DNA of 54,447 nucleotides from a virus (taxonomy: Duplodnaviria > Caudoviricetes). Position 1 is the first letter of the stretch. Each line of letters begins with the position of its first letter. The notes beneath the pieces are model-generated. The model had not been told where the DNA came from. It was given only the letters and a program-made list of their open reading frames with translations, and ran no database searches. The position numbers were made by a program, and so were the translations under genes. This document shows positions 14,301-52,069 of the stretch, in pieces. The stretch spans positions 1 to 54,447 of IMG/VR virus record IMGVR_UViG_3300006735_000044; one strand, given 5' to 3'.

Positions 14301-17300
14301 TTTAGCATTCTATGATGCTACTGCATCTGCAAATAGAAAAATAACATTAACACAATTAATGGGTGCTGTGACTCATGGATTAATCCCAACATTACCTGCT
14401 GATAAAATTGGTAGTGGTGAATTTGGTACTAGCAGAATACCTATATTAGCACAATCTAAAATAGAAGATTTATCAACCGATTTAGCAGGTAAAGTTCCTA
14501 TTACTAGAACAGTAGCAGGTAGGGCATTGTCAAATAATCTAGCAGTTAGGGTTAATGCTGTTACAGGTAAGTTAGAATTTTATGATGGGAGTTCTACAAC
14601 AATTATACAAGATACCGCAGGTACTCCTGTTGATGTTATATTTGATAATAGAAAAACAGAATATGATGAGATTCAAGACGCTAATAATACTAAACCTGCT
14701 GACAATGCTACTGTTGGTGGAACATTAGGTTCTAGTGGAAATATATTATTAGAAGATGGTAGTACTAAGTTAACAGATACTACTGCATTAAATGCAAATA
14801 CTAATTGGTCGGATGTAGCAGGTACAGCAAACGCACCTGCAAATAACGCTACCGTTGGTGCTAGATTAGGTACTAATCTTAAAGCAGCAGATGGTTCTAC
14901 GACATTAGGTGATGCTGATGTAAAAAATGCTAATATTGCTTCTACGCATGTAGTTGGTACTGGTAAAATATTCGCTACTACTTTACCTGAAGATGGTGCT
15001 ACACGAAGTAGAACATTTAGACAAACAAGCGTACCTACTGCTGTTTCAGCAGGTGATATTTGGATTGATACCGATGATAATAATAGAATGTATCAGGCTC
15101 ATTCTGCGGGTGCAGATGAAGTTACATCAGGAGAATGGGAATCAATTGGCTTCCCTGCGGCAGAAGCAAATGCTACTGCAAGTGCAGGTACAGTTGATAC
15201 AACAGGAACAGTAAATGCAACTGAATATGCTAGATTTACAGATTCAAATACATTAGAAGCAAGAACAACAGCAGAGGTTCGTTCTGATTTAGGTATTTCA
15301 GATAATGAAATAATAGATTGGACTGCTGACCAAGGTTCTACAAATATTCATTCAGGTAATTATGATAATGACCAATTATCAACAGAGGCAGTACAAGATA
15401 TTGTAGGTAATATGTTTGAAAGTAATTCAGAAACAAGAATAGTTACTTCTTATATTGATGGTGGTGAAGGTGCAGGTAAGATACAACTAGTAGTTGCTGA
15501 CCAATCTTCTGATGACAATACAACTTATTCAATATCTGCGGTTGATGGTGATAATACTGATGAAGAAAAGATTCGATTAACTGATAGTGCAGGTGGTACT
15601 GATGATGTAGTACTTGAAGCAGGTACAGGATTAAGTATAGCAAGAAGTAGTGATAAAATTACTTTCACTAATACCGTTTCCAACACGAATGATTATGCAG
15701 AAAGCGTGTCGTTTAACACTGGTTCAGGTGTCTTTACACTGGGTAGAACGGGTTCGTTAGGTGATTTAACGGTTGATTTAGATGGTCGTTATGCCTTATC
15801 TGCGGCTAGTGGTGAATCTAATACTGCTTCTAACGTGGGTTCAGGTAGTGGTACAGAAGTAGGGGTATTCAAACAAAAAGATGGTGCTGACTTAGAATTT
15901 AAGAAATTAAAGCAAGGGTCTAATATTACTTTAACATCTAATACTAGTGATATAACTATTACTGCTACTGATACTCAATTAAGTACAACAGAAGTAACAG
16001 GTAAAGCACTAACTAATTTAAGTGTATCATCCGGTGGAGCAGTAGGTGCAACAGATTCTATATTAGTTGGTATAGGTAAGTTAGAAAATAGAGTAGCATT
16101 AAATGATGTTAAGGCAACTAATGTATCTACTAACTTAGGGATTACAGGAACAACAGGTGCAAGAACAATAACTTCTGATGGCACAAGTGCAGTAATACCT
16201 GTTGCTACTACATCTGTAAGCGGTGTAATGTCAACAGATATATTTGATGCTATTGCTCTTAATACAGCAAAGAATACTAATGTAGTAGGTAATTTAGCAG
16301 CAGTTGCAAATGGTACATCTTTAAGTATTACTACTACTAATGGTAATAATGTATCCTTGCCGTTAGCAGATACAAATAATTGGGGTGTAATATCTGATGA
16401 AATATTTGATAATATTACCGCTAACAATGCTAAGGTTAGTTATACTGATGCTTCTGCTGTTGCGGCTAATACTAATAAAGTTACAAACGTATCAACTAAT
16501 TTATCGGTAAGTAGAGATGGAACTAAATTACACGTTGTATCTTCTGACGGTACTGATGCCGAACTACCTTTAGCAGATACAAATAATTGGGGAGTTATGT
16601 CTGATGAAATGTTCGATAAACTAGATGGTATAGAAACATCTGCTGATGTAACAGATACGACAAATGTTCATTCTGCTCTTAATGCGGCAATGCCAAGTAA
16701 TGCTCTTACTATTGGTGACGGTAATACAGCAGTTTCAATTCCGGGTGATTTAACAGTAACAGGAACAGTGACTACAAATAATGTAGAGACTGTATCAACA
16801 AGTAATGGTGTAGTCTTTGAAGGTTCTACTGCTGATAATAGTGAGACAACATTAGTAGGTGGTAATCCAAGTGGGTCTAATAATGATATTACAATTACAT
16901 TACCTAATACACAAGGTACTTTAGCATTACAAAATGAAAATACTACGGGAACTGCGGGTGGTTTATCTTCTACTTTAGCAATATCAAGTGGAGGTACAGG
17001 TTCTACTACCGCTAGTGGTGCTAGAAGTAATTTAGGGTTGGGAACAGCAGCAACATTATCAGGAACAGGTGCAGTTTCTAACGGCAACGCAGGTTTAGTA
17101 ACAGGAGATGTGGTCTTTGATTATATAGCGGCACAAAACTTTGCATCTAGTGGGGCATCTAATTTCGTTGCGGGGGATATTACAGGTGCAGCAGATTTAG
17201 GAAATAATGTTGCTTCGGGAGATTCATTAATATTACACGATACATCTGAATCTGCTTTGAGAGAAATGACTATTGCTAATTTAACAACTTATTTTAATAG

Positions 17301-20300
17301 TGCTTCAATATTAACAAACTTAGCAAATACTGATACTGTTTACTCTCTTCCAACTGCCTCTTCAACTGTTTTAGGAGGTATTAAAGTTGGTTCTAATTTA
17401 ACAATTAATAATGGCGTATTATCGGGAACTCCTGATACTGTTTATACACATCCTTCACATAATGGAGATGATATAAATATAGATACAGGTGCTTTAACAG
17501 GTGCAACCGTTATATCAGATTTAGATTTTAATGTAACTACTGATACATTAGGACACGTTACAGATGCTAATGCTACAATAGCAACAAGAACATTAACATT
17601 AGCAAACTTAGGTTTTACAGGAGATGCTGACGCTACTGATGACTTAACTGCGGCAGAAATTAGAACTTTAGTTGGAACAGGTAATAGTGGTGTTGTACCC
17701 GCAGAAGGTAGTGCGGGAGAGTTTCTAAAACACGATGGTACTTTTGGTACTCCTAGTTATACTACTAATACAGATACTAATACATTTAGAACAATAGAGT
17801 TAGATACAAATGGTGATGGTTCTGCTAATAATACCTTAACTGCAACTGAAACATTAAGATTAAAGAAAGGTAGTAATATTACTTTAGCAGAAGTAGATGG
17901 TGTTGTAACTATTTCTTCTACTGATACTAATACTAACACCGAATACACAGCAGGAACTAACTTAACATTAAGTGGAACAGAGTTTAGTGTTGATGATGCA
18001 TTCTTGAAGAATGACGCTAATGATAGTACAACAGGAACAATAACTGCCGCAGGTTTTACAACAACAGGGACATGGACTTTTGACGATGCTTCAACAGGAA
18101 CAGTCGGTATTACTGCTATTCATACGGGTACTGGTTTTGCAGACAATGATACTTCTTTAATGACAGCAGGTGCTATTAAAGAAAAAATTGAAGATTATGG
18201 TTATATTACTTCATTTACTAATACCGTAGATATGGGTGATGGTTTCAAACTTAGGGATGATGATAATGATGATGTAACTGTTACTGAAAATAAATTTATC
18301 AAGTTTACTGCGGCAACAGGAACAGCAGGAACTAATGTAACAGGTTCAGGAACAACAGGCGACCCCTACATAATGGCTATTACTTTGCCTGATACAGTTT
18401 ATAGCCATCCAAACCATTCAGGTGATGTAACTTCAAGTAGTGATGGTGCAACTACTATTGCTGCTGATGCAGTAACATATGCTAAGATGCAAAATGTTGC
18501 TACTGCAAATAGAGTATTAGGAAGTTCAAGTGCAGATGGGGCAGTATCAGAAGTTCAAGTTGCTACTGCTATGATTGCTGACGATGCAGTAACTTATGCA
18601 AAATTACAACATACTGCAACAAATAATAGAGTATTAGGTGCAACATCAGCAGGTGTAATATCAGAAGTTCAAGTTAGTAATGCTATGTTAGCAGGTTCTA
18701 TTGCTGATTCTAAACTTTCTACAATTTCTACTGCTAATAAGGTTGCATTAACTGCATTAGATATAGATGGAGCGTCTGATATTGGGGCTAACTTAGTTGA
18801 TGCAGATTTAATGATTGTTGATGATGGAGCAGGTGGTACTAATAAAAAAGCAACAATGAGCAGTTTAGCCACTTATATGCAAAGTGCATTAACATTTACT
18901 AGTAATTCAGATGTAGATGTATCTGTTGATAATCTTGAAACTAGGTTAGGAGAAATAAATTCTAACGTCACCATTGGTAATGCTAATACAGTAGATACTA
19001 CTATTTCAGGAGACTTAACTGTAACAGGGGATTTATTAGTTAGTGGGGCTACTACAACATTAGATGTTGCTACATTAGCAGTAACAGATTTGAACATTAC
19101 AGTTGCTAAAGATGCTGATTCATCAGCAGCAACAAATGGAGCAGGTTTAACCTTTGGTTCAGGGTGGTCATCAGGAACTATACCAACTTTAACTTATGAC
19201 CATGGTAATACAAGATTAGCAGTTAACGTACCTTTACAGGCTACTAGTTTTGTTGGTAATGCTTCTTCTGCAACTCAAGCAACAGTTGCGACAAATGTTA
19301 CTATTACTAATAATGCTAATGCTGATGAAGACAATTTAATTCCATTTGTTCATAATGAAGAAGGTGCAGGGAGTAGAGGATTAGAAACAAATTCAGGATT
19401 CCACTACAATCCAAGTACAGGAAGATTTACTGCAACAAGTTTTGGTGGTAGTGTTGTTGGAGATTTAACAGGTAATGCTGATACTGCAACTAAATTTAAT
19501 AATACAGTTAATATTAACGGTGTTGCTTTTGATGGTTCAACAAATGTTACTGTTACTGCTGATGCTACGACTCTAACAGGTACAAGTTTGAAATCCTCAG
19601 TAGTTGGTTCTTCTTTAACAAGTGTTGGAACTATTACAACAGGTACTTGGAATGGAACTGCAATTGCTACTGCTTATATTGCAAATGATGCTATTAATAA
19701 TGATAAGATAGCGGATAATGCTGTTAGAACTGCTCAAATAGCAGATGACCAAATTACTACTGCTACTATCGCAGATGACCAAATTACTACTGCTACCATT
19801 GCTGACAATCAAATTACTAATGCAACAGTAGCAGACAATGCAATTCAATCAGACCAAATAAATGCTAATGCAGTTGTAGAAGCAAAGATTGCTGATGATG
19901 CTGTAACAGGTGCTAAGGTTAGTGGGTTTGCTATTACTAATACACAAGTTGGTGCAGGTACTTTATCAATTGAATTGGGTTCTACTGCAACAGCATTAAC
20001 TTTCAATACTCAAGCCCAAGCAGATTCATTCCCAACTTCAGGAGTTGTTGACGTTGGCGGTGAGAAAATAAAATACACTGGTAAAACAGGTGCAAGTTTA
20101 ACAGGATTGATTAGAGGCCACAAAGGAACAACTGCTGCAACTCATAATGCAAATGAGAGTGTTAAACATGAATATGCAAAACGAATTACATTAGGTGGTT
20201 CAAGAACATTAGAAGTTAAACAGTTTGAAGGTGCTGATTCTACTAATGCTACTGATTTAGCAGGTGGATTAGTACCTTATGCAGGTACAGGTGATACTGC

Positions 20301-30901: not shown

Positions 30902-31025
30902 TGATATTACCCCAACATTCTTCACAGCATATACCGCCCTCTTCTAATGTAAATGCATTATTCGTTTTATGAAACTTACACAATTTACATTTAAATATTT
31001 TATTAATAAATATTATTTTGCCTAT
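30891..31025 (-). CDS. 44-aa Zn-finger micro-ORF with non-canonical (ATA?) start
   Basis: IGKIIFINKIFKCKLCKFHKTNNAFTLEEGGICCEECWGNINEK*; GGAGG 7 nt upstream of ATA; no ATG/GTG in frame. Confidence 0.4.
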   Translation of the reverse strand: MGKIIFINKIFKCKLCKFHKTNNAFTLEEGGICCEECWGNINEK

Positions 31026-32725
31026 TCTAATCCCTCCACTTTTAATGCAGCAAATCTAATTGCTTCTCTTGCACTGGCGGTGATACTAGCGGCTATATCT
31101 ACATCAGACCAACCAAAACCCTGATACCCGATGATACCATAAAAACTCGCCATCAAACGCTTTACTGCTAACTGATTGTTATTCCATTTAATCTTATCAT
31201 CTTTAGTAGTCGCTTCTTTCATTTTCTTTTTATACTCATCTCTCAATGCTTTTAATTCTAAAACTGACTTAGGTAATATTCCTAATTCATCAGTCTTATA
31301 ATACAACATTGTTTCAGTTTTAACAGGTGAGAAATCTCTAGGGGTAGAAATGTTTACAGCAAATTCTGTTGGAACATCTGATTTAGTTTCCCAAGATATA
31401 TTACGTGCTATCATCATTGATGGGTATAGTTGTGCATAATCAAATGCTGCTACTCCTTGATGTAGGCCATTAGTATTTTCTTTTAATGGGTCATATATCA
31501 TTGCTCCTTCGTAGTTAATCTTAACACCATCAGTTGATGATGGCGCTTTCCACCAAGCATTACGCATGAAATATATTCCTCCCATATTGCTTGCATAAAA
31601 ACACGCATTAAACGGGGCTTTGATTAAACGCTGTAATGATAATACCGCTTCTGATAAATAGTTTGTTTCATCTAACTCTTTAATTAGTTCTACATCTATT
31701 AAGGCATACTGTAAATATGTATCAGAATCTTCTAACCAACCTCTTCTGAAAAACTCCTGCTTATCAGGAAACTTTTCACTAACTAATTTCTTAGAACCTA
31801 GAACTAGGTTTGATACATAATCTAACGATAGTGAAGGAAGAGTACCTCGTTGAGCATCATTCCATTGTCTTTCAAATGCTACATCTAAACTTAGAGTTAT
31901 TCTTCCTTTAATAGGTTGTTCAATAGGACCAAAAAAATCTCTGTTAAAAGAATAACTATTCTTATTATTCTTGAATCCATCAACTTCCCAAACAGGTGAT
32001 AATAACCTAGCATCTAGATTAAGTGCAGCACATCTTTCTAATAATTTAGGTAAATCGAATCTGTTTCCAAACCAAGATATTAACATATCAGGGTCTTGTT
32101 TATTTATTACTGTTAGGAAATAAAGTATCATTGCTTTCTCATTATCAAAGATAAACTCTTCTGTATCTTCTCTTACAGTATTTTCACTTAAGATTCTTTT
32201 TGTAGGAAACCAACTATATCTATAAAACTTCTTTTCAAAATTATCGTACATAACTATACAAGTTATATCTCCATCATATTCTCCACCTTGCATCCATTCC
32301 ATATCCCAATAACACTTTCTTAAATCATATTCAGGAAATCCTTTTTCGCCAAAAGAACGTATCGCTTCGGTATTACCCTTGCTAAATACATCAACAGCAT
32401 ATCTATGTGTATATCTTACGTCTGCTTCAAAGGTAGTAGTGAACTCATCTTTTACCTTTCTCATCTCTTGAGGGTTTTTACAGTAAACTCTAGTTAAAGG
32501 TAAGTTTTGTAGATTTTTATATGCTGAAAATTCTTCATAAGTTACAGTTAATACTTTACTATTACCCCATCTATCTCTAGTAATAATATTCTCAGGTTTA
32601 GAATCACTTGCTAAAATATAAAAATATGGTCTAAAAACAGAGTGGGGAGTGATACAGGATTCCCTTTTACCTGTATCATCTCTCCATGCTGTGTATATTC
32701 CTTCTGTTGTTTCACTAATTATCAT
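31022..32725 (-). CDS. polB: Family B DNA polymerase, N-terminal subunit (3'-5' exonuclease plus motifs A and B)
   Basis: ExoI WDMEW, ExoII SWFGNRFDLP, ExoIII YALIDV, YEGA, motif A FDYAQLYPS, motif B KRLMASFYG; ends just before motif C. Confidence 0.9.
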   Translation of the reverse strand: MIISETTEGIYTAWRDDTGKRESCITPHSVFRPYFYILASDSKPENIITRDRWGNSKVLTVTYEEFSAYKNLQNLPLTRVYCKNPQEMRKVKDEFTTTFEADVRYTHRYAVDVFSKGNTEAIRSFGEKGFPEYDLRKCYWDMEWMQGGEYDGDITCIVMYDNFEKKFYRYSWFPTKRILSENTVREDTEEFIFDNEKAMILYFLTVINKQDPDMLISWFGNRFDLPKLLERCAALNLDARLLSPVWEVDGFKNNKNSYSFNRDFFGPIEQPIKGRITLSLDVAFERQWNDAQRGTLPSLSLDYVSNLVLGSKKLVSEKFPDKQEFFRRGWLEDSDTYLQYALIDVELIKELDETNYLSEAVLSLQRLIKAPFNACFYASNMGGIYFMRNAWWKAPSSTDGVKINYEGAMIYDPLKENTNGLHQGVAAFDYAQLYPSMMIARNISWETKSDVPTEFAVNISTPRDFSPVKTETMLYYKTDELGILPKSVLELKALRDEYKKKMKEATTKDDKIKWNNNQLAVKRLMASFYGIIGYQGFGWSDVDIAASITASAREAIRFAALKVEGLE

Positions 32726-41786: not shown

Positions 41787-42259
41787 TCTCTACCATTCCA
41801 TACTCTATACTTAACTTCATATTCAACTGTTACATCAAAAGGGAATATAGGAAATACTAAGGTAGCATTACCGAATTGTGGTGCATAACCACTATCCCAC
41901 AAGTATGTTCCTTGTTGAATATAACCATTAACATTAAATGTGAAATTATTAAATATTACAGTATTGTTTATGATATCAAAACTCAAATGAGTCAAATTGT
42001 AATGGAAATAATCTAATTCAATTAGACCGTGAGTTGTGTTAAAATCTAACACCACTGTTTCTTGTGTTGAATTATTCACATCATTAATTAAGTATGTAAA
42101 TGAACCATTCAACATAGACCAATCTTTCACACATTCTTCGTCTTCTGCAAACACTTCTTCAGGAGATGGTATAGTACATCCCGCTAACATAAATGTTAGT
42201 AAAAATACTAGTCCATATTCTCTTAATGTTGTCTGTCTTGAATTAAGTAGGTTCATCAC
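41771..42259 (-). CDS. Putative lipoprotein
   Basis: Hydrophobic stretch LVFLLTFM followed by lipobox LAGC; several N-x-S/T sequons. Confidence 0.6.
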   Translation of the reverse strand: MMNLLNSRQTTLREYGLVFLLTFMLAGCTIPSPEEVFAEDEECVKDWSMLNGSFTYLINDVNNSTQETVVLDFNTTHGLIELDYFHYNLTHLSFDIINNTVIFNNFTFNVNGYIQQGTYLWDSGYAPQFGNATLVFPIFPFDVTVEYEVKYRVWNGRECSPQ

Positions 42260-42813
42260 TCTTCACCTTCCGTTACAGTGTGCCTACCACTATTGGTCTT
42301 AATAAATGATACGTGCTTACCTATTTCAGTTTTACAATCATAAGCCCACACTTCACCTTGACCTAGAACAATAGCACTATCCAAATTACCTTTCCATGTA
42401 TCAACAGTTCTCCAATCAGTACCACTAAAATATGCTGACATATTAGGGTGAGTATGAATCCAACATTTAATAGGTAATTTCATTGGTTCTTCACTACCAT
42501 ATAACTCATCATCTTGATTTGCAAAAGATACAAAACCCGGTGTTCCAACACTCATGAATAGATTATTATTAGCATCTACTAACACTTGAACTTCTCTAGG
42601 AATATCAAAATACTCAATAGATTGTTTGTATATTTGACTAAGGAATGCTTCTGTACCAAAATCAGGATACACCCATTCCATACTATCAGAACATACTTCC
42701 CATAATTCTTTAATGGGTTTTTTCCATTCGTTATCTTTAACAACATTCTCCATTGTATTCAGATACAATCTATCATTCTTATCATATTCTTCTTCACTAT
42801 TCTTTATATTCAT
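42256..42813 (-). CDS. JAB/MPN+ (JAMM) metalloprotease, deubiquitinase-like
   Basis: Complete JAMM motif: E (PREVQV) ... WIHTHPNMSAYFSGTD (H-x-H-x7-S-x2-D). Confidence 0.88.
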   Translation of the reverse strand: MNIKNSEEEYDKNDRLYLNTMENVVKDNEWKKPIKELWEVCSDSMEWVYPDFGTEAFLSQIYKQSIEYFDIPREVQVLVDANNNLFMSVGTPGFVSFANQDDELYGSEEPMKLPIKCWIHTHPNMSAYFSGTDWRTVDTWKGNLDSAIVLGQGEVWAYDCKTEIGKHVSFIKTNSGRHTVTEGEE

Positions 42814-43190: not shown

Positions 43191-43527
43191 CTTTTAATTC
43201 TTTGATTACAATTTTGTTTGTGAGCCTATCATCCTTAAAAAAAGGAATGGGGCTATTTTTAATAGTTATAGTAAATGTTTGACCATTCATCATATGAACC
43301 AACACACTCTTACCTGTATCAGATACAGCAAATATCTTATCTCTTAGAAAACTAGTCATCCCAAACTCCGTAGGGTACTCGTTAGTCCAATCTGATACTA
43401 CATTAACCATATTTACTTCTGATGGTTTAGAAGGTTTCCAGTCTTCTAATCCCATATCAGACTCCTCCTTGTTGAGATGCTCTGATACTCTCTTTGATAA
43501 TAGACTCATGATATACTTGATGTCCAC
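43168..43527 (-). CDS. Hypothetical protein (likely start 43455)
   Basis: GGAGG SD before MGLEDW. Confidence 0.55.
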   Translation of the reverse strand: MDIKYIMSLLSKRVSEHLNKEESDMGLEDWKPSKPSEVNMVNVVSDWTNEYPTEFGMTSFLRDKIFAVSDTGKSVLVHMMNGQTFTITIKNSPIPFFKDDRLTNKIVIKELKGEENEEK

Positions 43528-43699
43528 CTAAAAACCCTCCTGCATGTCTTTTTGTTCCTATAAACTCTTCACCACAAACATGACAACAAACTCTAACTAT
43601 TTCAGACCTGAGATAAATCCCATCTTTAGAAATAATACTTAATATTTCACCTATCTCCTCATCTGATAATTCTAAGTCGTCATCTACTTTATCACTCAT
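43457..43699 (-). CDS. C2H2-type Zn-finger protein
   Basis: CHVCGEEF...GHQVYH; ATGA-coupled to the E1-like gene. Confidence 0.6.
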   Translation of the reverse strand: MSDKVDDDLELSDEEIGEILSIISKDGIYLRSEIVRVCCHVCGEEFIGTKRHAGGFLGGHQVYHESIIKESIRASQQGGV

Positions 43700-44271
43700 A
43701 TATTAAACACCATACTTGTTTTTACTTCTTGCTTGTTGAACCATTTCTGAATCCATTGAGCAGCAATTGAAGCAATCACATTATTCATCATATTAACACC
43801 CTTAGCAGAACCATCCCAAGACTGTGCTTGGCACGAAAATGAACCTTCTTCTCCTGTTAACACAGTATCTACTAAATCAGGATTAAGCATGTATGATATT
43901 AGCGTAGCATTTCTACCTTGCGCTCTCAAATCTAACCACTTCACGGTAGCATCTTCACCTGTACCTTGCCTATAAAGCAAGCGTCTTACATCCAAATTAT
44001 CTGCACAACAGATAACTAGGTCATAACCTTTCAATTGTTTTGGTACTAAAACTAAATACGGTTGTGCTTTAACACCACTAAACTGACTACTAATCGCTTC
44101 TGCTTTATTTTCTCCTAAGTGGCTTTCATTATAGTGCTGATAAGTTAAATTCTTTTTCTCTACCTTATCATCATCAAAAACAGTTATGTCATAAATACCT
44201 AACCTTTCTAAATTATGTATTAACATACTACCTATACCACCTGCACCTATTATCATTATCTTTCTTTTCAT
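43696..44271 (-). CDS. ThiF/MoeB/E1-like adenylating enzyme
   Basis: IIGAGGIGS, FDDDKVEKKNLTYQ, KAE, YDLVICCADN...RR, candidate catalytic Cys in SFSCQ; no CxxC Zn pairs. Confidence 0.88.
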   Translation of the reverse strand: MKRKIMIIGAGGIGSMLIHNLERLGIYDITVFDDDKVEKKNLTYQHYNESHLGENKAEAISSQFSGVKAQPYLVLVPKQLKGYDLVICCADNLDVRRLLYRQGTGEDATVKWLDLRAQGRNATLISYMLNPDLVDTVLTGEEGSFSCQAQSWDGSAKGVNMMNNVIASIAAQWIQKWFNKQEVKTSMVFNI

Positions 44272-44272
44272 T

Positions 44273-44542
44273 TTAACTACTCCATTCTATTGTTTCCTTT
44301 TTTGTAAAGAGGGAAACTCTCTTTAATTTATAGCCGTAATCTGTTGCTACTACATATCTCCATATTTTTTTAGGAGATGACTCATAATATTCCATATCAA
44401 CTACCGTTACTTTAACATATCTGCCTTTTAATACAGTATATCCCTTATAACCAATATCATAATTATGAGAATTTCTCCATTTTTTCCAAAACTTTATATC
44501 ATTGACCATAAAATTACTTCCTAATTCCATTAATAAAATCAT
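44273..44542 (-). CDS. Hypothetical protein (likely start 44509)
   Basis: ORF filling the gap between TFB and E1. Confidence 0.5.
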   Translation of the reverse strand: MILLMELGSNFMVNDIKFWKKWRNSHNYDIGYKGYTVLKGRYVKVTVVDMEYYESSPKKIWRYVVATDYGYKLKRVSLFTKKETIEWSS

Positions 44543-45416
44543 TTAGTGTTAAATAATTTAATTTATTTTTATCCACATTATATAATTGTAAAATCTTTTT
44601 CATATTCTTTCTTAGTGATACTTCAGTAGTACCCACTAGTTTAGCAACTTCTTGTTGTGTATAGTTTTCTCGTCTAAATACAGAGACTAAATAAAAACAT
44701 GCAGACAAAGTTGCTATTGTAAATTGTACACCATGTGCATCTAGTTTTTGGTAAACGTGTTCTGATAATTTACTTACATCCCCAATATATTGAGGATTAG
44801 GTAAATATAATTTTGAACCAACTTCTTGAATCAATCCTTCAATATTCATTTGAGAAAATACCCAAGGCTTACCCAAATGAGTTGCTATCACTCTAGCGTA
44901 TTTTGATATTTCACCTCTAGGTATCTTAGTTACATTAGAATGTTTCTGTACTGTTACTGCAATACCTGCTTCTTTCAATATATAATAAGTTAAACTTGCT
45001 GCTCTATTATCAATAGGTACTGCTCTTAATGCCTGTTTTTTATTTAGTAGATTATAATATTTACTTACTCTACTCTTTAATACGGGCGCTACGTTATAAT
45101 AAGATAAATTCATATTAGATAATTTTAACATCCTCAAGTAAGATTCATTCAATGGATTATTATGTCTTTGAGTGAAGAATAGTTTTCTACCTACAACACC
45201 AAATTTATTGATATCCCCTTTATGAATTGTTGAACCTAAGTCCCAAGATTTGTTAGGTGAACCTGTATAATCTATATTTGATATATTATAATCTACGTTT
45301 CTAATAGTATCTTCAAATATATTTTGGATTAAAACAAGTCCACAATCTAAACAAACTTGTTCACCTAATCTTTCGTCAAACACATTTTTTTCTGATTTAC
45401 ATTCTATACATTTCAT
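44514..45416 (-). CDS. tfb: Transcription initiation factor B (TFB/TFIIB) homologue
   Basis: Zn ribbon CIEC...FDERLGEQVCLDCGLVL, two cyclin repeats, BRE-binding HTH TQQEVAKLVGTTEVSLRKN. Confidence 0.88.
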   Translation of the reverse strand: MKCIECKSEKNVFDERLGEQVCLDCGLVLIQNIFEDTIRNVDYNISNIDYTGSPNKSWDLGSTIHKGDINKFGVVGRKLFFTQRHNNPLNESYLRMLKLSNMNLSYYNVAPVLKSRVSKYYNLLNKKQALRAVPIDNRAASLTYYILKEAGIAVTVQKHSNVTKIPRGEISKYARVIATHLGKPWVFSQMNIEGLIQEVGSKLYLPNPQYIGDVSKLSEHVYQKLDAHGVQFTIATLSACFYLVSVFRRENYTQQEVAKLVGTTEVSLRKNMKKILQLYNVDKNKLNYLTLNDFINGIRK

Positions 45417-46642
45417 AAATAACCCCTCTCAGATATTAAATCTAAATTATCAAAATACTCTTTAGGTAGCCTATGATATTCTTCATCAGGTAATCTCATA
45501 GTATTAATTTGTGAACTTGATGTAACATCATTCATGAGGAACATTGCTCTTGCAGCAAATTGGTCGCCTACACTAGAGTTCCTGTGGATGTTATCTATAC
45601 ATACACCAGTTGTCTTACCCAAAACAACAGTACCATCTTTAGGATGTGTTACACTTTCAGCACTCTTAGTGAACTCATTCTTTCTATTTAGAATAAATCT
45701 AGTAGTTTTGACTTTTTGAGTAACAGATGAAGAACCGAGATTCTCCATTAATATCCAATCGCACCTTTGACCTCTAACTATCATTATAGTTCTTAAACCT
45801 TTAAGTTTAAAGACTCTTATTTTATTAGGGAACTTACTTTCTAATTCTGTCAATAACTCTTCGGCTCTCTTCTCAACCAATGACTGTGTTCTATTTTGTT
45901 TTAAGAAAGCATACATTAATTTTGTTTGAGATTTACTAGGTAATTCACCTAATAATTTTCTCCATAAGTTCTCAGGTGAAACTCCCCATTTCTCAGACCG
46001 CTTATGACCATGCCTATGAAAATTAACAAACGAATTTAAATCTTTGATAGCAATATTAGCCCAAACACCATCGGATAATTCTAATGCACATTCCTTATCG
46101 GATATAATTTTTGTTTTGATTCTGACATTATGTTTCACCATATCACCATCCTTACTGTAAAATGAATATGGTGTTCTGTTTTCTACTGAATGCATTACGT
46201 TAGGTGGGAATAATAACAACCTACGAATATACCTATCCATCTTTACACTACTATTTTCAAAACAAGAACGATAAAATATTTTACTTAAATTAGCCATAAT
46301 AATAGATTTATTACCCTTCTCACCATTTAAGAAAAAGTGAGGTTTATTCTTTTGAAACACAATAGTTGAATCTCCATCTTTATACTTAAAAGTAATAATA
46401 GTAGTTAGATTATCATTAGTTGACATAAATAAAAACTTATTTATTGCAGTACTAATACCCGCATAAATAGGGTCTAAACTATTTCTTTTTTCTTTATTAA
46501 GTTCAACAGTTACAGGATATTCCCCAAACCTATTGAGTTTACGCCTATAATCACGCTTAATATCAGTAGTACGGTACAGGAAACTAGTTGTATCATACGT
46601 GTTACTATCATCTGCTCTTGCTATTTTCATCTTAACTTTCAT
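45413..46642 (-). CDS. Hypothetical protein with possible E2-like C-terminal Cys motif
   Basis: 409 aa; THPK...GVCIDNI; coupled to tfb; E2 assignment speculative. Confidence 0.5.
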   Translation of the reverse strand: MKVKMKIARADDSNTYDTTSFLYRTTDIKRDYRRKLNRFGEYPVTVELNKEKRNSLDPIYAGISTAINKFLFMSTNDNLTTIITFKYKDGDSTIVFQKNKPHFFLNGEKGNKSIIMANLSKIFYRSCFENSSVKMDRYIRRLLLFPPNVMHSVENRTPYSFYSKDGDMVKHNVRIKTKIISDKECALELSDGVWANIAIKDLNSFVNFHRHGHKRSEKWGVSPENLWRKLLGELPSKSQTKLMYAFLKQNRTQSLVEKRAEELLTELESKFPNKIRVFKLKGLRTIMIVRGQRCDWILMENLGSSSVTQKVKTTRFILNRKNEFTKSAESVTHPKDGTVVLGKTTGVCIDNIHRNSSVGDQFAARAMFLMNDVTSSSQINTMRLPDEEYHRLPKEYFDNLDLISERGYL

Positions 46643-46914: not shown

Positions 46915-47173
46915 TTATATTCCTCTCTTTATATTTTTTATATTCATGTATTTCTACTATTTTTGTGAGGGCTAAATCCCTCGGCACATTATTGATAGTA
47001 TTCATTGTTCTCAATAGGTTGTGCATAAATGTTAGGGGGGACATATTGCCATCCTCTAACTGTTTAAATCTTACTTTTATGTTTTCTATGACTACTGGAT
47101 TAGAAAATAAACTATATATTTCCTGTTCTATTTCCAAGAACTCTTCCCTGTTTAGTTTTGACCTATATCTCAT
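46886..47173 (-). CDS. Hypothetical protein
   Basis: ATGA-coupled to RNR stop. Confidence 0.55.
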   Translation of the reverse strand: MRYRSKLNREEFLEIEQEIYSLFSNPVVIENIKVRFKQLEDGNMSPLTFMHNLLRTMNTINNVPRDLALTKIVEIHEYKKYKERNINEDNLRELT

Positions 47174-49062
47174 ATTTCACAAACTCCACCCGCACAGGCA
47201 ATCTCTCCTTGCAAGTCAGTATAATCATCATATTCCTTTACATCCTTAAAATCTAAATCAGAAAGTTTACTGAACATTTCATTATATTCAGATTCAGTTA
47301 TTTCTTCAAATGGCGCTTGTTTATAAGAACCATTATCATATGGTAAAACTGCTAGACCATTGTAATAATGTCTATTTAACCACATCCACGCACCTACATC
47401 TTCCCACTCATCTTCACGAATCTGAACAGTTGCAGATACATTATGAGTGTTCAATCCATCTCTATGACCACGTTGAACCCATCCAACAGAGAAACGCTTT
47501 ACACGTTCTAACATATCAATAGCAGATTCATGTCTAGTTATTATATCACCTTTAGGTGCTTTTTGTGGTATAGAAAATACTGCTTCGGTAGCACTAAAGT
47601 AATCATCTTCTATTAATTCAGGAACTTTATCTAATAGATATTGATATACAGGTTCTACCTTATTTACTCTAACTCTTCTATTATAGAATGGAGCATACCA
47701 AGGATGAATACCCGATGAAGTACCTAATACACAACTAGCAGTTCCCGATGGTTTAACACAAGTAACTCTTGCTGCTTTATTTATCCCAAGCAATTCAGCA
47801 ACTCTTTCATTTTCATTCTTTGCAACGATTGCTGCCTGTTCAATATCTAACAAAGTTACCTTATTACTACCTATTCCAGTCATAGACACACCTAAAAGCG
47901 CATCTTTTTCAGTAGTTTTCTGCCAAACTTCTCTTAAATAATGGAAATCTGTATAACCTGCTTGTAAAGTTCCTAAGAAAGCAGCCGCTTTAACTCTCTC
48001 TTCCAAATCTTCTTGAGATAAAACATCAGAAACATTACATTCAGTCAAGTTACAAAACTGATAAGGGCGTAAAGCAATCTCACAACAAGGATTTGTTCCC
48101 CAATCTTTATCATGAGAGAAATATATTCCCGGTTCTCCTGAATTAGATAATCTAATTCTTTCCCATAAATCTTCAAAGAAGCCCTTTTCTATTCTATGTC
48201 TAAGTAAGAATGCTGAGTTATTCGCTCTACCTCTTTGTGGATTCTGTTCATACCACTTACCTGCTTTACAATTAATCATTTCATTATCATCAGCACTAAA
48301 TAAAGATATTAATGCTGCTCGTCTAATGCCACCTGATAAAACTGCATGAGCAATATGACATAATATATCATGACACTCTAAAGGAGTTAGTTGTGTACCT
48401 TCTTCTTTCTGTAATAACATTGTTTCAATTTTAACCAATGCTATTTTTAGTGGTGCAGGACCGGGTGCTTTCCCACCACTAGTTTTTAGTGGCGCACCTT
48501 TAGGTCTAATATCATCATAATCAAAATTAGGTGAAGATGTTCTCATACCAAAGTATGATTCAAAAAGAACTTTAATTGCATCAGCCCAACCTTCAATAGA
48601 ATCATTAATTAATATTCTTCTAAACTTATCAGGATTGGGTTTTCTAATCGTTGGTAGTTGTTCTACATGGTGTCGTTGTACAGAATAACCTACTCCTGTT
48701 CCACCTAATAACAAAAACATAGATTCAGAGAAACACTCTAAAGAATCTATTGGCATATATGCACAATTGTATAATCTGTTTGGTGATAGTTCTATTGGTT
48801 TACCTGCAAATTGAAAAGACCTCATTGATGGAACTACCTTTCTAGTTTTAACATAGTTCTCATATATATTTTCTATCTCTTCAATCAGTTGAGGATTACC
48901 TAGATTAACATATTTTTTAAGATGCATTTGTTTATTTCTTTCACAAATCTCATCCCAAGATTCTCTTCTATTTTCTTCTGTCTTATATTTAGCATACTTC
49001 GTAAATACATTGAACTCTGATAGCACTTTATTTTGTAATTCCATTTCTTTCATCTTTAACAC
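47170..49062 (-). CDS. nrdJ: Class II (adenosylcobalamin-dependent) ribonucleoside-triphosphate reductase, monomeric type
   Basis: RESWDE, PSMR, YNC, GGTGVG, GGIRRAA, GEPG, TNPCCEI, CNLTE, CVKPSGT, C-terminal CAGGVC; no small subunit gene in the window. Confidence 0.93.
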   Translation of the reverse strand: MLKMKEMELQNKVLSEFNVFTKYAKYKTEENRRESWDEICERNKQMHLKKYVNLGNPQLIEEIENIYENYVKTRKVVPSMRSFQFAGKPIELSPNRLYNCAYMPIDSLECFSESMFLLLGGTGVGYSVQRHHVEQLPTIRKPNPDKFRRILINDSIEGWADAIKVLFESYFGMRTSSPNFDYDDIRPKGAPLKTSGGKAPGPAPLKIALVKIETMLLQKEEGTQLTPLECHDILCHIAHAVLSGGIRRAALISLFSADDNEMINCKAGKWYEQNPQRGRANNSAFLLRHRIEKGFFEDLWERIRLSNSGEPGIYFSHDKDWGTNPCCEIALRPYQFCNLTECNVSDVLSQEDLEERVKAAAFLGTLQAGYTDFHYLREVWQKTTEKDALLGVSMTGIGSNKVTLLDIEQAAIVAKNENERVAELLGINKAARVTCVKPSGTASCVLGTSSGIHPWYAPFYNRRVRVNKVEPVYQYLLDKVPELIEDDYFSATEAVFSIPQKAPKGDIITRHESAIDMLERVKRFSVGWVQRGHRDGLNTHNVSATVQIREDEWEDVGAWMWLNRHYYNGLAVLPYDNGSYKQAPFEEITESEYNEMFSKLSDLDFKDVKEYDDYTDLQGEIACAGGVCEI

Positions 49063-49436
49063 CTTAATTTTTTTCTTTCTACTATTTGGTCAAATGAAGA
49101 GAATGAATGAACATATTCACCATTCTTCTTTACGACCCATTCTCTCTCGACCAAAAAGTTCCAAGATGGGAAGGTAGAAATTACATCAATTCCATATTCT
49201 GAAATTAAATCATCTACGTCTTTGTATTGTTTATTTTTATATTCAATCAGGGTTTCCCCATCACAAATAATAACGGCTTTCATACTCACTGCTAGAACAT
49301 ATCCAACAGGATAAAAGTCGGGCTTCATTAAAGTATAATCTTCATATTTTTTACTATCACGGTAAAGCCAACCTTGTGATTTCAAAAAGACTGGTAATAT
49401 TCCAGTCGGTAATATATTCGCATAATCGCATAACAT
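49056..49436 (-). CDS. Hypothetical protein
   Basis: AGGAGAGG SD; directly upstream of nrdJ. Confidence 0.6.
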   Translation of the reverse strand: MLCDYANILPTGILPVFLKSQGWLYRDSKKYEDYTLMKPDFYPVGYVLAVSMKAVIICDGETLIEYKNKQYKDVDDLISEYGIDVISTFPSWNFLVEREWVVKKNGEYVHSFSSFDQIVERKKLRC

Positions 49437-49531
49437 AGGATTCCTCTCCTAAGAAGGTATGAGGGGCAGCAAGTTGTGAGGGAATGCTGCCACCTCAATT
49501 GTAGAGACATAAATACCTAAATGGTATTTAT
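49437..49531 (-). promoter_or_regulatory. Structured intergenic element (two hairpins) between Ubl gene and RNR operon
   Basis: 9-bp perfect IR 49509-49517/49523-49531; 12-bp GC-rich stem with one bulge 49460-49471/49485-49497. Confidence 0.55.
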
Positions 49532-49737
49532 TGGTTGCCTCCACCCTGCATCCCCGGCATTAGTAGTACATCTGCTACTGAATCCCAGTCTGTTGCTGTA
49601 ATTGTTTCTTTAGGTACTTGAATCCCATCAAGATATATCCAATGTGTTGGATGGTCTTGTATTTGGTCAAGCATATCATCTATTGTCATATTTTCCATTA
49701 CCGTATGTCCGGTTTCATTTGCTATTGTTAATTTCAT
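49528..49737 (-). CDS. Ubiquitin-like (ThiS/MoaD/SAMP beta-grasp) protein with masked di-Gly terminus
   Basis: 69 aa; MKLTI...MTIDDMLDQI...IYLDGIQV...DVLLMPGMQGG-GNQ parallels ThiS/MoaD (TxxELL...vNG...DxVxIxPxVxGG). Confidence 0.75.
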   Translation of the reverse strand: MKLTIANETGHTVMENMTIDDMLDQIQDHPTHWIYLDGIQVPKETITATDWDSVADVLLMPGMQGGGNQ

Positions 49738-49766
49738 ATTTTCACTTTCCTTGTATTTTCTCTACA

Positions 49767-49783
49767 TTTTTATAGGTCTATAA
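49767..49783 (-). promoter_or_regulatory. Candidate archaeal TATA box within a short palindrome upstream of Ubl
   Basis: - strand TTATAGACCTATAAAAA (IR TTATAG/CTATAA; TATAAAAA) 30-37 nt before the Ubl ATG, in one of the few intergenic gaps. Confidence 0.4.
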
Positions 49784-50014
49784 TTATTTTGACCTTCCCT
49801 CTAATAAACGGCCTGTTAAAGCGTTTATTGTATTTTCATATTGAACACATAATGCCTTATGGTTGTTCAAATCCGCAACTAGTTGATTGATTATATTTTG
49901 TGCCTTATTTAGTTCAGCAATATATTCATCAACAGTTGGTTCTGCGTTCACTGGTTCTGCTTCTTTTTTACTTTCTTTCTTTTTACTCATTTTACTCATC
50001 TCCGAATAATCCAA
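49784..50014 (-). CDS. Small coiled-coil protein (likely start 49990)
   Basis: Heptad pattern YIAELNKAQNIINQLVADLNN. Confidence 0.55.
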   Translation of the reverse strand: MDYSEMSKMSKKKESKKEAEPVNAEPTVDEYIAELNKAQNIINQLVADLNNHKALCVQYENTINALTGRLLEGRSK

Positions 50015-50081
50015 TAGGCCATAATGTTGATACCACTACTACGCCTACTGCAAATCTCGCTAATGCTCCTATCTTACTCAT
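49992..50081 (-). CDS. 29-aa membrane micropeptide
   Basis: MSKIGALARFAVGVVVVSTLWPIGLFGDE*; GGAGG SD. Confidence 0.5.
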   Translation of the reverse strand: MSKIGALARFAVGVVVVSTLWPIGLFGDE

Positions 50082-51249
50082 ATCCTTTCCTCCTTTCTTC
50101 TAATAGAGTCGCAATGGCTGCTGATGCATCATGTTTGCTTAGGCTTGCGAAGTCTCCTTCATAGCCTAAGTTCCTCAAATAACTACATTGTTTTTCTGTT
50201 GCCATTTGAACATCTCCATTGTCTCTGTTTAGAATTTTTACTAGTGATTGGCGTTGTGCCTCAGTAGGTTCTTTACCCGACATAATCCAATCCTTAATAC
50301 TACTTAAGAACTTACGTTCCCAATCATTAATACCATCTAATTCTGAAAACATTCTGATACCATAATAGTTACATTTGTCCTCAAATTCTGAATCATTTTG
50401 ATTCTCTTCCATATTAGAAGCAATCATTTTATTCTTCTCTATTTCTAGATATCTTTGTCTTCTTGTTATTAAGTCGTCTTTCTCTTTTTGAACTTCAAGA
50501 AGTCTTTCTGCAAGTTTCTTATCTTCATTGTCTGTCAACGTCTGATGCATTTCAAACATAGCATAAAACAATGTTAAATCATTCATTAACTTCTCAGTTG
50601 GATAACCTCTTGTTAAGATTTGTCTCTTTGGGTTTTCAGGACTATTCCATCTCCAAACGATACTAGCCATCTTGTATGTAGGTGCGCCATAAGTACCTTT
50701 ACTAGATTTACGAATTTTAGTATTATCAAAATACTGTTTATATTCATGATTATAGTATTTACCTACTTTACGAACATTCACTCTCATATCTAAATCCTTA
50801 ACATGGTCAAACATTGTTTTGAATGCATCACCATTAGTATGCCACCAAGCAGTTTTCTTCATAGATTCAACTCTGACATTAATCCACTTCTCAATCATAT
50901 CTTCTGATATAGAATCAATATCAACACCTGTATCTTCTGCAATTGCTCTCAATATTAAGTATGAATTGATGTGGTCTGAACCTACACATTCTCTTACACC
51001 ATTTTCAGTATTTAATATTTCAAAATGGTACACAATATTATGTGAGCATAAACACTTACGTGGATGAGTTGTTACCCATTCAGGCATTTCACTTAATCCA
51101 CTCCACCAACATTCACCAGTTGCTATCCATTCATGTTTCGCTTCATCATAATTATCAGCAACAGATAACTCAGTTAATTTTCTTTTCAGAATCTTATCCC
51201 ACTTACCTTCACCTAATTCTCTTTTATATTTATATTCTTCTTCTATCAT
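50074..51249 (-). CDS. Hypothetical protein with metal-binding N-terminus and helical C-terminal repeats
   Basis: CLCSH...CVGSDH; WERKFL...PTEAQ and ATEKQ..YLRNLG motifs. Confidence 0.6.
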   Translation of the reverse strand: MIEEEYKYKRELGEGKWDKILKRKLTELSVADNYDEAKHEWIATGECWWSGLSEMPEWVTTHPRKCLCSHNIVYHFEILNTENGVRECVGSDHINSYLILRAIAEDTGVDIDSISEDMIEKWINVRVESMKKTAWWHTNGDAFKTMFDHVKDLDMRVNVRKVGKYYNHEYKQYFDNTKIRKSSKGTYGAPTYKMASIVWRWNSPENPKRQILTRGYPTEKLMNDLTLFYAMFEMHQTLTDNEDKKLAERLLEVQKEKDDLITRRQRYLEIEKNKMIASNMEENQNDSEFEDKCNYYGIRMFSELDGINDWERKFLSSIKDWIMSGKEPTEAQRQSLVKILNRDNGDVQMATEKQCSYLRNLGYEGDFASLSKHDASAAIATLLEERRKGYE

Positions 51250-51846
51250 TTATCTCATTCCGTTTTTCTTTTGTCTTCTTCTATAAGTTTGACCACATGG
51301 TTGGTCTGAACAGAACTTTTTGTTCGACTTACCAATAAACAATTTTCCACACTCTAAACACTCTACACCTTTACCTTGTTTAAATGATTTGATGTTTCTT
51401 TCTAGTCTATTTTTAAGAGCATTAAAATTATCATTTGCTTCTATTTTACTAATCAATTTCCTTTTGTTCCTTGCTTCAACCTGACATTGTTCTCTACAAT
51501 ATTTTCTCAGACTTAATATTTTTGCACTATACACTGTAAAGGGTACGCCGCAATTTTCACAATGTTTGTTTGTTGGAGGAAACTTTGGGTTACGACTATC
51601 ATACATTTCTTTTTTACACTTAGGTGAACAAAACAAATTATACTTCTGACCAACATTTAAAATCTGATTTATACTAATAGGGTCATGACAAGTCATACAC
51701 AAAGGTTCACTCAAACCTGCTTTTATGGCTAGGTAAAATGTTTGCCTCAATAGTTGAATATTCAACTTACCTTTTACTGTTGCACCGTCTTTTAACTCTA
51801 GAAGAAAACTATCATCAGTCATTATCCTCATCTTCCATTTTCTCAA
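51250..51846 (-). CDS. Multi-Zn-finger (TRASH/treble-clef-like) protein (likely start 51822)
   Basis: Three CxxC...(F/Y)CxxxC units. Confidence 0.65.
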   Translation of the reverse strand: MRKWKMRIMTDDSFLLELKDGATVKGKLNIQLLRQTFYLAIKAGLSEPLCMTCHDPISINQILNVGQKYNLFCSPKCKKEMYDSRNPKFPPTNKHCENCGVPFTVYSAKILSLRKYCREQCQVEARNKRKLISKIEANDNFNALKNRLERNIKSFKQGKGVECLECGKLFIGKSNKKFCSDQPCGQTYRRRQKKNGMR

Positions 51847-52069
51847 ATGAGCGCATTTCTTGTAGATGTGCTGTAAGAACTCTATCTAATTGTTTAAATA
51901 AATGTTCTGCACATCCTGCTATTTCTTTACGATATAACATCAGCCAAGTCTTGTGTGCTGTATTAATTAATATTTTAGGATAATCTCTATCATCCATCTT
52001 AACAATTAATGGTGGTAAATCAACATCATTAATTAATTTAGTTTCTATTTCCATTTGAAATGTATTCAT
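51815..52069 (-). CDS. Hypothetical protein
   Basis: GGTGA SD, ATGA overlap. Confidence 0.55.
   Translation of the reverse strand: MNTFQMEIETKLINDVDLPPLIVKMDDRDYPKILINTAHKTWLMLYRKEIAGCAEHLFKQLDRVLTAHLQEMRSFEKMEDEDND

Follow-up and report, generated by a model that had tools for sequence, protein, structure and literature searches.

The window analysed here, the whole 54,447-base stretch of the virus record IMGVR_UViG_3300006735_000044 (approximately 32% G+C; CheckV completeness 57%), carries on its minus strand a small open reading frame (ORF) that we read as the gene of a ubiquitin-like protein (Ubl), together with genes for a ThiF-type E1 and a JAMM metalloprotease. The Ubl gene spans 49528..49737 (-), stop included, with its ATG at 49737 and its TAA at 49530-49528, and encodes a protein of 69 aa that starts MKLTIANETGH and ends LLMPGMQGGGNQ, i.e. 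QGGGNQ*. The initial annotation was thus right that no free C-terminal GG is translated. Specifically, the codons of the di-glycine G65-G66 (49540..49545, minus strand), the predicted site of E1 adenylation after trimming, are followed by those of a C-terminal tail, G67-N68-Q69 (49531..49539, minus strand), which is predicted to be removed and aligns with the variable tails of the orthologues. The E1 (191 aa) is encoded at 43696..44271 (-) and the JAMM/MPN+ metalloprotease (185 aa), a predicted pro-Ubl peptidase and possibly a deconjugase, at 42256..42813 (-). All three genes lie inside a co-directional block of minus-strand genes only, which runs from about 23.6 kb to the end of the window. 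Each of the five records checked, the window and four complete relatives, has just one copy of the Ubl (5/5).

The alignment of homologues that had been proposed as a check was run, and the di-glycine is invariant in it while the residues behind vary. In alignment A4, which comprises 68 sequences (the window, 60 viral loci and 7 database proteins), G10, G65 and G66 are the sole invariant columns (68/68); in a first alignment of 16 sequences, G65-G66 was likewise invariant (16/16) and so was H11, which is kept in at least 90% of A4. The register LLMPGMQGG|GNQ matches ..L.PAIVGG|x of the relatives, and the conserved di-glycine is therefore G65-G66 and the tail GNQ; the capped di-glycine of the initial annotation stands, and its alternative of an NQ tail falls. 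Among 62 distinct orthologues from 81 loci, the GG is followed by no residue in 7, one in 23, two in 29, three in 2 (the window and its 99% relatives) and four in 1, so that tails of 0-4 residues occur, with 30 different tail sequences. In these counts, the L056 group is taken as tail-less, as its stop follows directly after GG (it was printed as '*NN' where the match overran the stop), and nine C-terminally incomplete matches of the HMMER search described below (P0026, 28, 29, 32, 33, 34, 36, 42 and 44) are excluded.

A model built with the 16-row alignment gave the Ubl a beta-grasp topology. In this AlphaFold2 (AF2) model (predicted local distance difference test, pLDDT, 82.6; predicted template modelling score, pTM, 0.64), the elements b1 (2-6), b2 (11-15), a1 (19-28), b3 (32-36), b4 (39-41), h (43-46) and b5 (56-61) follow the order b-b-a-b-b-h-b, which is the beta-grasp order, and residues 62-69 are unstructured, with pLDDT <50 for 66-69. 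The top rows of a Foldseek search against the PDB are almost all ubiquitin or Ubl proteins (E 7e-3 to 3e-2, probability 0.8-0.99), and VIA-align gives Z scores of 5.0 for MoaD, 4.9 for Ddi1-UBL, 4.6 for ThiS, 4.6 for ISG15, 4.3 for Urm1, 4.0 for TtuB, 3.8 for BubA and 3.8 for CysO, all at or below 5.0 and within the range (Z <8) where the tool warns that a match may reflect a common arrangement. Because the match list is consistent and is joined by the GG end and the E1 links, the fold can be called although the scores alone are modest. Taken together, these findings predict that the Ubl is a genuine beta-grasp ubiquitin-like protein. Curated families are silent: Pfam ThiS (PF02597), ubiquitin, Prok_Ub and Multi_ubiq match neither the window Ubl at E <= 0.1 nor 16 family members at E <= 1, so the Ubl is filed in none of them, and profile A1 returned only noise from the PDB (E >= 0.31). 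An Atlas ThiS-family cluster reached 0.85 for the Ubl and serves as a lead only.

The E1 is recognised by Pfam ThiF at 76.3 bits against a cut-off of 28.1 (2.6e-21) and contains the GxGxxG and DN...R motifs. Its GAGGIGS sequence is invariant, as is Cys147 within an SCQ motif, among the orthologues (68/68 distinct ones). Among solved structures it lies closest to a ThiF-type protein, Cap2, Uba1, MccB, UBA5 and MoeB, in each case over the N-terminal half only, and the NCBIfam family of SAMP-activating E1 matches it weakly (1e-9), far below the cut-off. No rhodanese domain is present. Judged from its sequence, the viral protein is a truncated, minimal E1, in which Cys147 would probably be the acceptor of the Ubl after adenylation, given its invariance and the alignment of the SCQ motif.

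The JAMM protein contains HTHPNMSAYFSGTD, which corresponds to HxHx7Sx2D, and this motif is intact in 70/70 distinct orthologues; in line with this, E74, H120, H122, S130 and D133 are invariant across 64 aligned JAMM sequences. A profile of these 64 orthologues, searched against solved structures, found deubiquitinases as the nearest relatives, namely AMSH-LP (1.2e-5), AMSH and an Rpn11-like chain (9e-5; 6fjv), with matches that cover only 30-60 residues around the motif; no Mec+ appeared at E <= 1. A complex of the JAMM (64-row alignment) with the Ubl (68-row alignment) and zinc was modelled with a score of 0.86, versus 0.41 for the best of three controls, a mark that 58/80 solved complexes and 2/110 mismatched pairs reached in calibration. 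The runs agreed in at least 94% of contacts, and partner pLDDT was at least 88. In the model, the C-terminal strand and tail of the Ubl (60-68) thread through the JAMM metal site, and the interface comprises JAMM residues 74, 120, 122, 130 and 133 and Ubl residues 6-8, 10, 33-42, 58 and 60-68. The ETGHT loop between strands 1 and 2 holds G10-H11 (49705-49710), of which G10 is the only invariant residue outside GG; residue 10 falls within the modelled interface.

In tblastn searches with the window proteins, the E1 was found in 72/76 and the JAMM in 71/76 diverged loci, without exception on the strand of the Ubl and downstream of it; the E1 follows the Ubl at approximately 3-7 kb, and the JAMM follows the E1 at a distance of up to about 2 kb. 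The loci without E1 and/or JAMM (L027, L041, L044, L052 and L081) lie on contigs that stop 0.6-8.3 kb past the Ubl. In the window, the JAMM gene lies 6.7 kb from the Ubl gene on the same strand, as the initial annotation had said in placing it about 7 kb away. This synteny supports a functional tie of the Ubl to the distant viral JAMM and E1, and, as far as gene content tells, Ubl, E1 and JAMM make up a core module that is conserved across a large group of marine archaeal tailed viruses of roughly 85-100 kb.

The family was delimited by several searches. A scan of viral contigs with a degenerate pattern matched 223 stretches, of which 204 encode a relative, and the best 80 of the 204 were kept; two loci of the first scan (L006 and L007) were dropped as false matches inside a terminase-like ORF that shared a peptide word. 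HMMER, run exhaustively over 1.84 billion representatives, returned 47 matches, comprising 12 giant repeat proteins, 9 fragments, 15 full-length single-domain proteins, 8 tandem proteins and 3 fusions. The giants were rejected as relatives: P0005 and P0011 are DUF7507/DUF11 proteins, P0005 has homologues in 10 of the other 11, and the family profile A4 matches 0/12 of the giants, which marks them as spurious, whether by chance or by summing over repeats. A word-based protein search with the Ubl returned just one 97% relative and one fragment. A scan of 185,579 representative genomes with a narrow Ubl pattern, which says little on cellular genomes, found only three contigs (L084-L086) of one flavobacterial metagenome-assembled genome, which are probably mis-binned viral DNA. 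Neither DNA nor protein comparison with the phage collection gave a match for the region, the E1 or the Ubl.

Relatives with tandem or fused Ubl domains bear directly on the processing of the GG end. Seven proteins (P0008, P0019, P0022, P0031, P0041, P0043 and P0050) contain two or three Ubl domains in which GG is followed by a short linker or tail, and P0013 is a Ubl-Ubl-E1 fusion whose E1 part matches ThiF at 3.6e-17 and the window E1 with 29% identity (E 1e-15), with the SCQ cysteine aligned. In 4/5 metagenome loci with such a fusion (L092-L096, approximately 51% G+C), the Ubl-Ubl-E1 gene overlaps a downstream JAMM gene, for example at 4992-6227 and 6068-6739 in L093, and these JAMMs match the profile of the viral JAMM (about 2e-21); in the remaining locus the contig is cut at the start of that ORF. 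Since the GG carboxylate of tandem or fused Ubls can be exposed only by proteolysis, this arrangement ties the JAMM subfamily to Ubl processing. Upstream of the Ubl-Ubl-E1 gene lies a gene for a 327-aa protein with an N-terminal CPDCGSNC zinc ribbon, reminiscent of the transcription factor (TFB) of the window virus; the fusion loci thus show the TFB-E1-JAMM neighbourhood also in a quite different genetic element. P0013 and P0008 have no relatives in the viral contigs. In P0010, both tandem repeats end in AG rather than GG, and in P0024 and P0037 two Ubl domains are followed by a domain of approximately 290 aa that matches no Pfam family.

Taken together, these findings make it likely that the Ubl, the minimal ThiF-type E1 and the JAMM make up a viral three-part system, in which the Ubl is made as a precursor, trimmed by the JAMM and activated by the E1. 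In the mechanism that we propose, the Ubl is translated as a precursor in which GNQ after G65-G66 keeps the carboxylate that E1 can adenylate off the C-terminus. The viral JAMM would most likely bind the Ubl body, as the predicted docking suggests, and clip after G66. The viral E1 would then adenylate the exposed glycine and probably pass the Ubl to Cys147. The mature Ubl would enter E2-independent protein conjugation of the SAMP/Urm1 type, a fate that we favour over sulfur carriage, and the JAMM would probably also remove the Ubl from its targets, the tail being a tolerated cap rather than an essential switch. Trimming of the pro-Ubl by the viral JAMM is, as a prediction, well supported by the synteny, the fusions and the complex model. 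The maturation role that the initial annotation gave to this JAMM is upheld to that extent. As 7/62 orthologues are tail-less, trimming is not universally needed.

Several points weigh against this reading. Those 7/62 orthologues stop directly at the GG; the JAMM is retained at six of their loci (L034, L046, L056, L070, L071 and L074), and the seventh locus is truncated. The Ubl can therefore do without the cap, and trimming cannot be all that the JAMM does; its other role is probably to strip the Ubl off its targets. Sequence searches of the Ubl in Pfam, PHROG, NCBIfam and the PDB gave no recognition, a single-sequence AF2 model (pLDDT 69) found no meaningful Foldseek match and was replaced by the alignment-based model, and even with the latter Foldseek returned nothing at E <= 1e-3. 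The E1 contains only three cysteines (C88, C89 and C147) and no CxxC pairs, and a structural zinc site of two such pairs is a feature of MoeB, ThiF and UbaA; in addition, its NLxRQ-like motif reads NLTYQ. The JAMM scores 19.8 bits with Pfam Prok-JAB, under the cut-off of 25. Complexes of JAMM proteins with ubiquitin have already been solved, so the high score of the complex model may reflect likeness or memory rather than binding, and this run departed from the calibration in that custom alignments were supplied and zinc was included. A host peptidase could perform the trimming. Finally, neither an E2 nor an E3 turned up: the Pfam scan, which leaves many ORFs of unassigned fold, brought out no Prok-E2 or UQ_con among the 20 window ORFs of 41.4-54.1 kb, and a genome search for UQ_con gave no match, with silent controls that make it uninformative.

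This last point also favours the strongest competing explanation, in which the Ubl is a sulfur carrier of the ThiS/MoaD/CysO kind that is adenylated by the E1, thiocarboxylated and used to feed host tRNA thiolation, cofactor synthesis or cysteine synthesis, and in which the JAMM trims the precursor like QbsD/CxnF or releases the product like Mec+. We regard this explanation as unlikely, yet it has real points of contact with the data. MoaD, ThiS, TtuB and CysO are among the structure matches, and the LMPGMQGG end of the Ubl resembles the usual C-terminus of a sulfur carrier. The rhodanese (PF00581), PP-loop (PF01171), MoaE (PF02391) and PALP (PF00291) families, which would mark the rhodanese, thiolase, MoaE and CysM-type steps, occur in 0/5 of the records searched (the window and four CheckV-complete relatives), in searches whose controls were positive in 11-14 of 14 genomes, though the host could supply these steps. 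The E1 is also without the rhodanese domain, the JAMM profile lies nearest to AMSH/Rpn11-type deubiquitinases, with the negative result for Mec+ given above, and the tandem forms with two or three Ubl domains are polyubiquitin-like. Tandem Ubl forms are not known to be typical of sulfur carriers. Conjugation is favoured by the lack of these enzyme families in the viral records, the polyubiquitin-like tandem forms, the deubiquitinase-like JAMM, the presence of Cap2, Uba1 and UBA5 among the solved proteins closest to the E1, and the invariant E1 cysteine, and we hold it to be roughly twice as probable as sulfur carriage. On the side of the sulfur carrier, the accessible text of PMC5925218 describes exact precedents for a capped GG in QbsE/QbsD and CxnE/CxnF, and that of PMC13079714, citing Kieft 2020, counts moeB and mec among 14 'core' viral auxiliary metabolic genes (AMGs).

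A further explanation holds that the tail is a neutral, drifting appendage, and that the JAMM was selected as an isopeptidase, with loss of the tail being either a by-product or the work of host peptidases. The 30 different tails among 62 proteins and the seven tail-less ones, with the JAMM kept in six and the seventh locus truncated, speak for such drift, and an archaeal Rpn11 homologue is described in the available part of PMC5654768 as both maturing and deconjugating. Drift alone sits less well with the at least one extra residue in 55/62 distinct orthologues, with the fused and tandem relatives that adjoin a JAMM of the same subfamily, and with the complex model, which sets the scissile region at the metal site. 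This explanation, which we rate somewhat below the sulfur carrier, overlaps with the mechanism proposed above, and the sole difference is which role of the JAMM was selected.

The initial annotation had also offered a timing switch, in which the Ubl is made early or abundantly and stays inert until the JAMM is expressed, and it had given the gene its own candidate TATA box and a downstream hairpin. Gaps of 46 and 91 nucleotides flank the Ubl gene, and most neighbour genes abut or overlap. The 46-nucleotide intergenic region upstream (49738..49783, minus strand) contains a Shine-Dalgarno (SD)-like AAGGAAAGTGA and two TATA-like words, TATAAAAA at -37..-30 and TTATAGAC at -46..-39, the former being 30-37 nucleotides ahead of the Ubl ATG. 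An SD-like site, defined as at least five exact bases of GGAGGTGA at -20..-3, occurs in 31/61 loci versus 5% of controls. The TATA-like word is present in the window and is only weakly enriched across the 61 loci, where TTTAWATA at -55..-25 is matched at 7/8 or more in 8/61 loci versus 4% of control windows, and at 6/8 or more in 39% versus 31%. The hairpin proved both real and conserved. The structured 3' region (49443..49531, minus strand) consists of a 9-bp hairpin that overlaps the stop and a larger GC-rich stem-loop, and folds in the window with a minimum free energy of -33.2 kcal/mol (z -5.08); against mononucleotide shuffles, the 3' regions of orthologues have a median z of -3.09 with 37/61 at z <= -2, versus a median of -0.29 and 11/63 in controls. 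It is a candidate terminator or RNA-stability element. Contigs from RNA libraries (four runs of four studies) cover the Ubl gene, namely X1 record 4 (49446-49983), X4 record 13 (49220-50686), X7 record 20 (49560-49998) and pieces of X8; they give no level, ends or strand, and DNA was possibly present. The gaps, the conserved SD-like site and the 3' structure around the Ubl, with E1 and JAMM in a packed run 5-7 kb downstream, make separate transcription plausible. Against the switch itself, Ubl, E1 and JAMM share a strand within a single long co-directional block, the case for a TATA box is weak, and the tail-less orthologues (7/62), six of which keep the JAMM, would have no switch at all. A timing switch is thus unsupported, and we consider it improbable.

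That the ORF is no Ubl at all, being a chance ORF or a relative of Ig-like DUF7507/DUF11 repeats, as the giant repeat proteins among the HMMER matches (12/47, with 5-15 matched stretches each) and the silence of curated families might suggest, is very improbable and effectively refuted by the conservation of the protein in 204 viral contigs, its invariant GG, its fusion to E1 in relatives, its predicted beta-grasp fold, the assignment of the scanned giants P0005 and P0011 to DUF7507/DUF11 and the failure of A4 to match any giant even at E <= 10.

A second protein with a GG end is encoded directly after the E1. This Cys/His zinc-finger-like acidic protein of 80 aa (43457..43699, minus strand), whose gene overlaps the E1 stop, ends ..QQGGV and has orthologues in 41/76 diverged loci. 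In 29/38 distinct orthologues, a single residue (A, I, V, Q or L) follows the GG and closes the protein, and the other 9 end without GG in ELEA, ELEV, GMEA or GMVA. Given the GG+1 end in 29/38, the system may have a second, non-beta-grasp client; the protein may be such a client or a regulator of E1/JAMM, it may be a mimic, or it may have split off from the E1, and its membership in the system is uncertain.

The module is embedded among genes of replication and transcription. The neighbourhood of the Ubl gene includes that of a class II ribonucleotide reductase (47170-49062), and a TFIIB/TFB homologue is encoded at 44514-45416 (-), with a Pfam zinc ribbon at 30.8 bits against a cut-off of 29; this TFB is kept in 67/76 diverged loci (median identity 26%), and its presence implies that the host is archaeal. 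One 89-aa ORF (44273-44542) separates the TFB gene, which is upstream, from the E1 gene. Further upstream are an ATP-dependent DNA ligase gene, one for an RFC-like AAA+ protein and a family B polymerase (PolB) gene. The PolB ORF (31022-32725, minus strand; 567 aa) contains the exonuclease domain, but of the 453 positions of the polymerase domain it covers just 40-195. Three ORFs without assigned function, at 50074-51249, 45413-46642 and 51815-52069 (-), encode 391, 409 and 84 aa and are conserved in 72-73/76 diverged loci; being as conserved as E1 and JAMM, they are candidates for further components or targets. On the opposite strand, two giant ORFs at 4229-10984 (+; 2251 aa) and 11329-22662 (+; 3777 aa) match no Pfam family, save one sub-threshold DUF5907 repeat in the latter, and presumably encode virion, fibre or adhesin proteins. 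Magroviruses, which are viruses of Marine Group II / Poseidoniales, are described in the accessible text of PMC5434244 as having linear genomes of approximately 100 kb that encode replication proteins of archaeal type (PolB, RFC and ligase), with group B having a ribonucleotide reductase and a split PolB. The partial PolB of 567 aa would fit this split polymerase, the related CheckV-complete contigs measure 85-103 kb, and gene set and size fit a magrovirus-like virus, of group B in particular, by comparison with that published description rather than with named genomes.

Among known systems, SAMP/UbaA/HvJAMM1 likewise combines a small beta-grasp protein ending in GG with a ThiF-type E1 and a JAMM, does without an E2, and belongs to hosts of the Euryarchaeota type. 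UbaA has CxxC pairs and a C-terminal part, and SAMPs double as sulfur carriers via host enzymes. In comparison, the viral E1 lacks both the CxxC pairs and the C-terminal part of UbaA, the viral Ubl falls outside Pfam ThiS, and sulfur-relay enzymes are not encoded in the viral genomes examined. The SAMP/UbaA/HvJAMM1 system is that of Haloferax volcanii, the subject of PMC4443979 and PMC4895103.

A counterpart for the precursor itself is the pro-ubiquitin of Candidatus Caldiarchaeum subterraneum, which, according to the experiments in the accessible portion of PMC5654768, is refractory to E1 until Rpn11/JAMM removes 9 residues. The two systems share the residues after GG, a JAMM that is encoded nearby and not adjacent, and, as described there, a JAMM that also deconjugates (in the virus, a predicted activity); the Rpn11-like chain of this archaeon (6fjv) is moreover among the nearest solved relatives of the viral JAMM, as given above. 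The same portion describes a cellular system with an E2, a RING E3, a true ubiquitin homologue and a 9-residue propeptide, whereas the searches of the viral one brought up neither E2 nor E3, no curated family takes in its Ubl, its tail measures 0-4 residues and its E1 has only 191 aa.

The closest match to the tail of 1-3 residues is found in QbsE (GG+CF)/QbsD and CxnE/CxnF, where, in the text available from PMC5925218, a short cap is cut by a cluster-encoded JAMM before adenylation. Unlike the viral module, these belong to clusters for bacterial secondary metabolites that also encode enzymes for sulfur transfer and acceptor enzymes; the viral genomes examined have none of these. In the Bil, Bub and type II CBASS systems, as covered by the accessible part of PMC11601596, JAB/JAMM peptidases expose the reactive glycine in pre-proteins and/or cleave conjugates, Ubls contain 1-3 beta-grasp domains, and Ubl-enzyme fusions are cut after glycine, as BubCD does with BubAB. 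Two of their proteins, BubA and Cap2, also came up in the structure and sequence comparisons of the viral proteins. In contrast to the viral genes, which are dispersed over 7 kb, those are host anti-phage operons of adjacent genes with E2 or E2-like proteins. Viruses themselves offer a partial parallel in the lambda/T1 tail assembly, where the TAPI Ubl with a conserved C-terminal glycine is predicted, in the sections available from PMC1779556, to be released by the virus-encoded JAB of TAPK (JAB + NlpC/P60). That system has no E1, sits in a tail module and fuses the Ubl to a C-terminal domain, whereas the magrovirus-like module sits among replication and transcription genes and includes an E1. 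The same sections, which date from 2006, already predict that a JAMM trims the capped GG of Ubls from prokaryotes and phages. The main texts of the three magrovirus papers searched contain no mention of ThiF, JAB or ubiquitin, and two of them, also searched for JAMM, do not mention it either.

The enzymes of the module may already have been counted under other names, mec being a name that we take to stand for a JAMM-type gene. In the available part of PMC8276007, the E1 (MoeB/ThiF) figures as one of the AMGs that archaeal viruses carry most often, and a link to ubiquitination is drawn; the passages on viral 'moeB' and 'mec' AMGs there and in PMC13079714 name no cognate viral Ubl. No cognate viral Ubl of this family is described in the literature searched, the coverage of which did not extend to supplementary gene tables that possibly list it. 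The mechanism, JAMM maturation of a capped GG, is already known, and it is the virus-encoded Ubl family that is new. Because this Ubl goes unrecognised by curated libraries, it appears as a "hypothetical protein", and its enzymes are counted as sulfur-metabolism auxiliary genes.

A complete set of modifier, activator and protease is thus, on the evidence of conserved gene content, a core module in a very abundant group of uncultured marine archaeal viruses, and recognising the Ubl alters how viral "moeB/mec" genes are read. Tentatively, and with less confidence than in the three-part system as such, we suggest that this abundant ocean group of archaeal viruses might run a minimal E2-independent conjugation pathway, made of an unannotated Ubl, a 191-aa E1 and a deubiquitinase-like JAMM, which would tag host or viral proteins and of which the 'moeB/mec' genes would encode the enzymes. 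With components of 69, 191 and 185 aa, the system is small enough to be rebuilt in vitro, and it raises the question of what an archaeal virus does with a protein modifier of its own.

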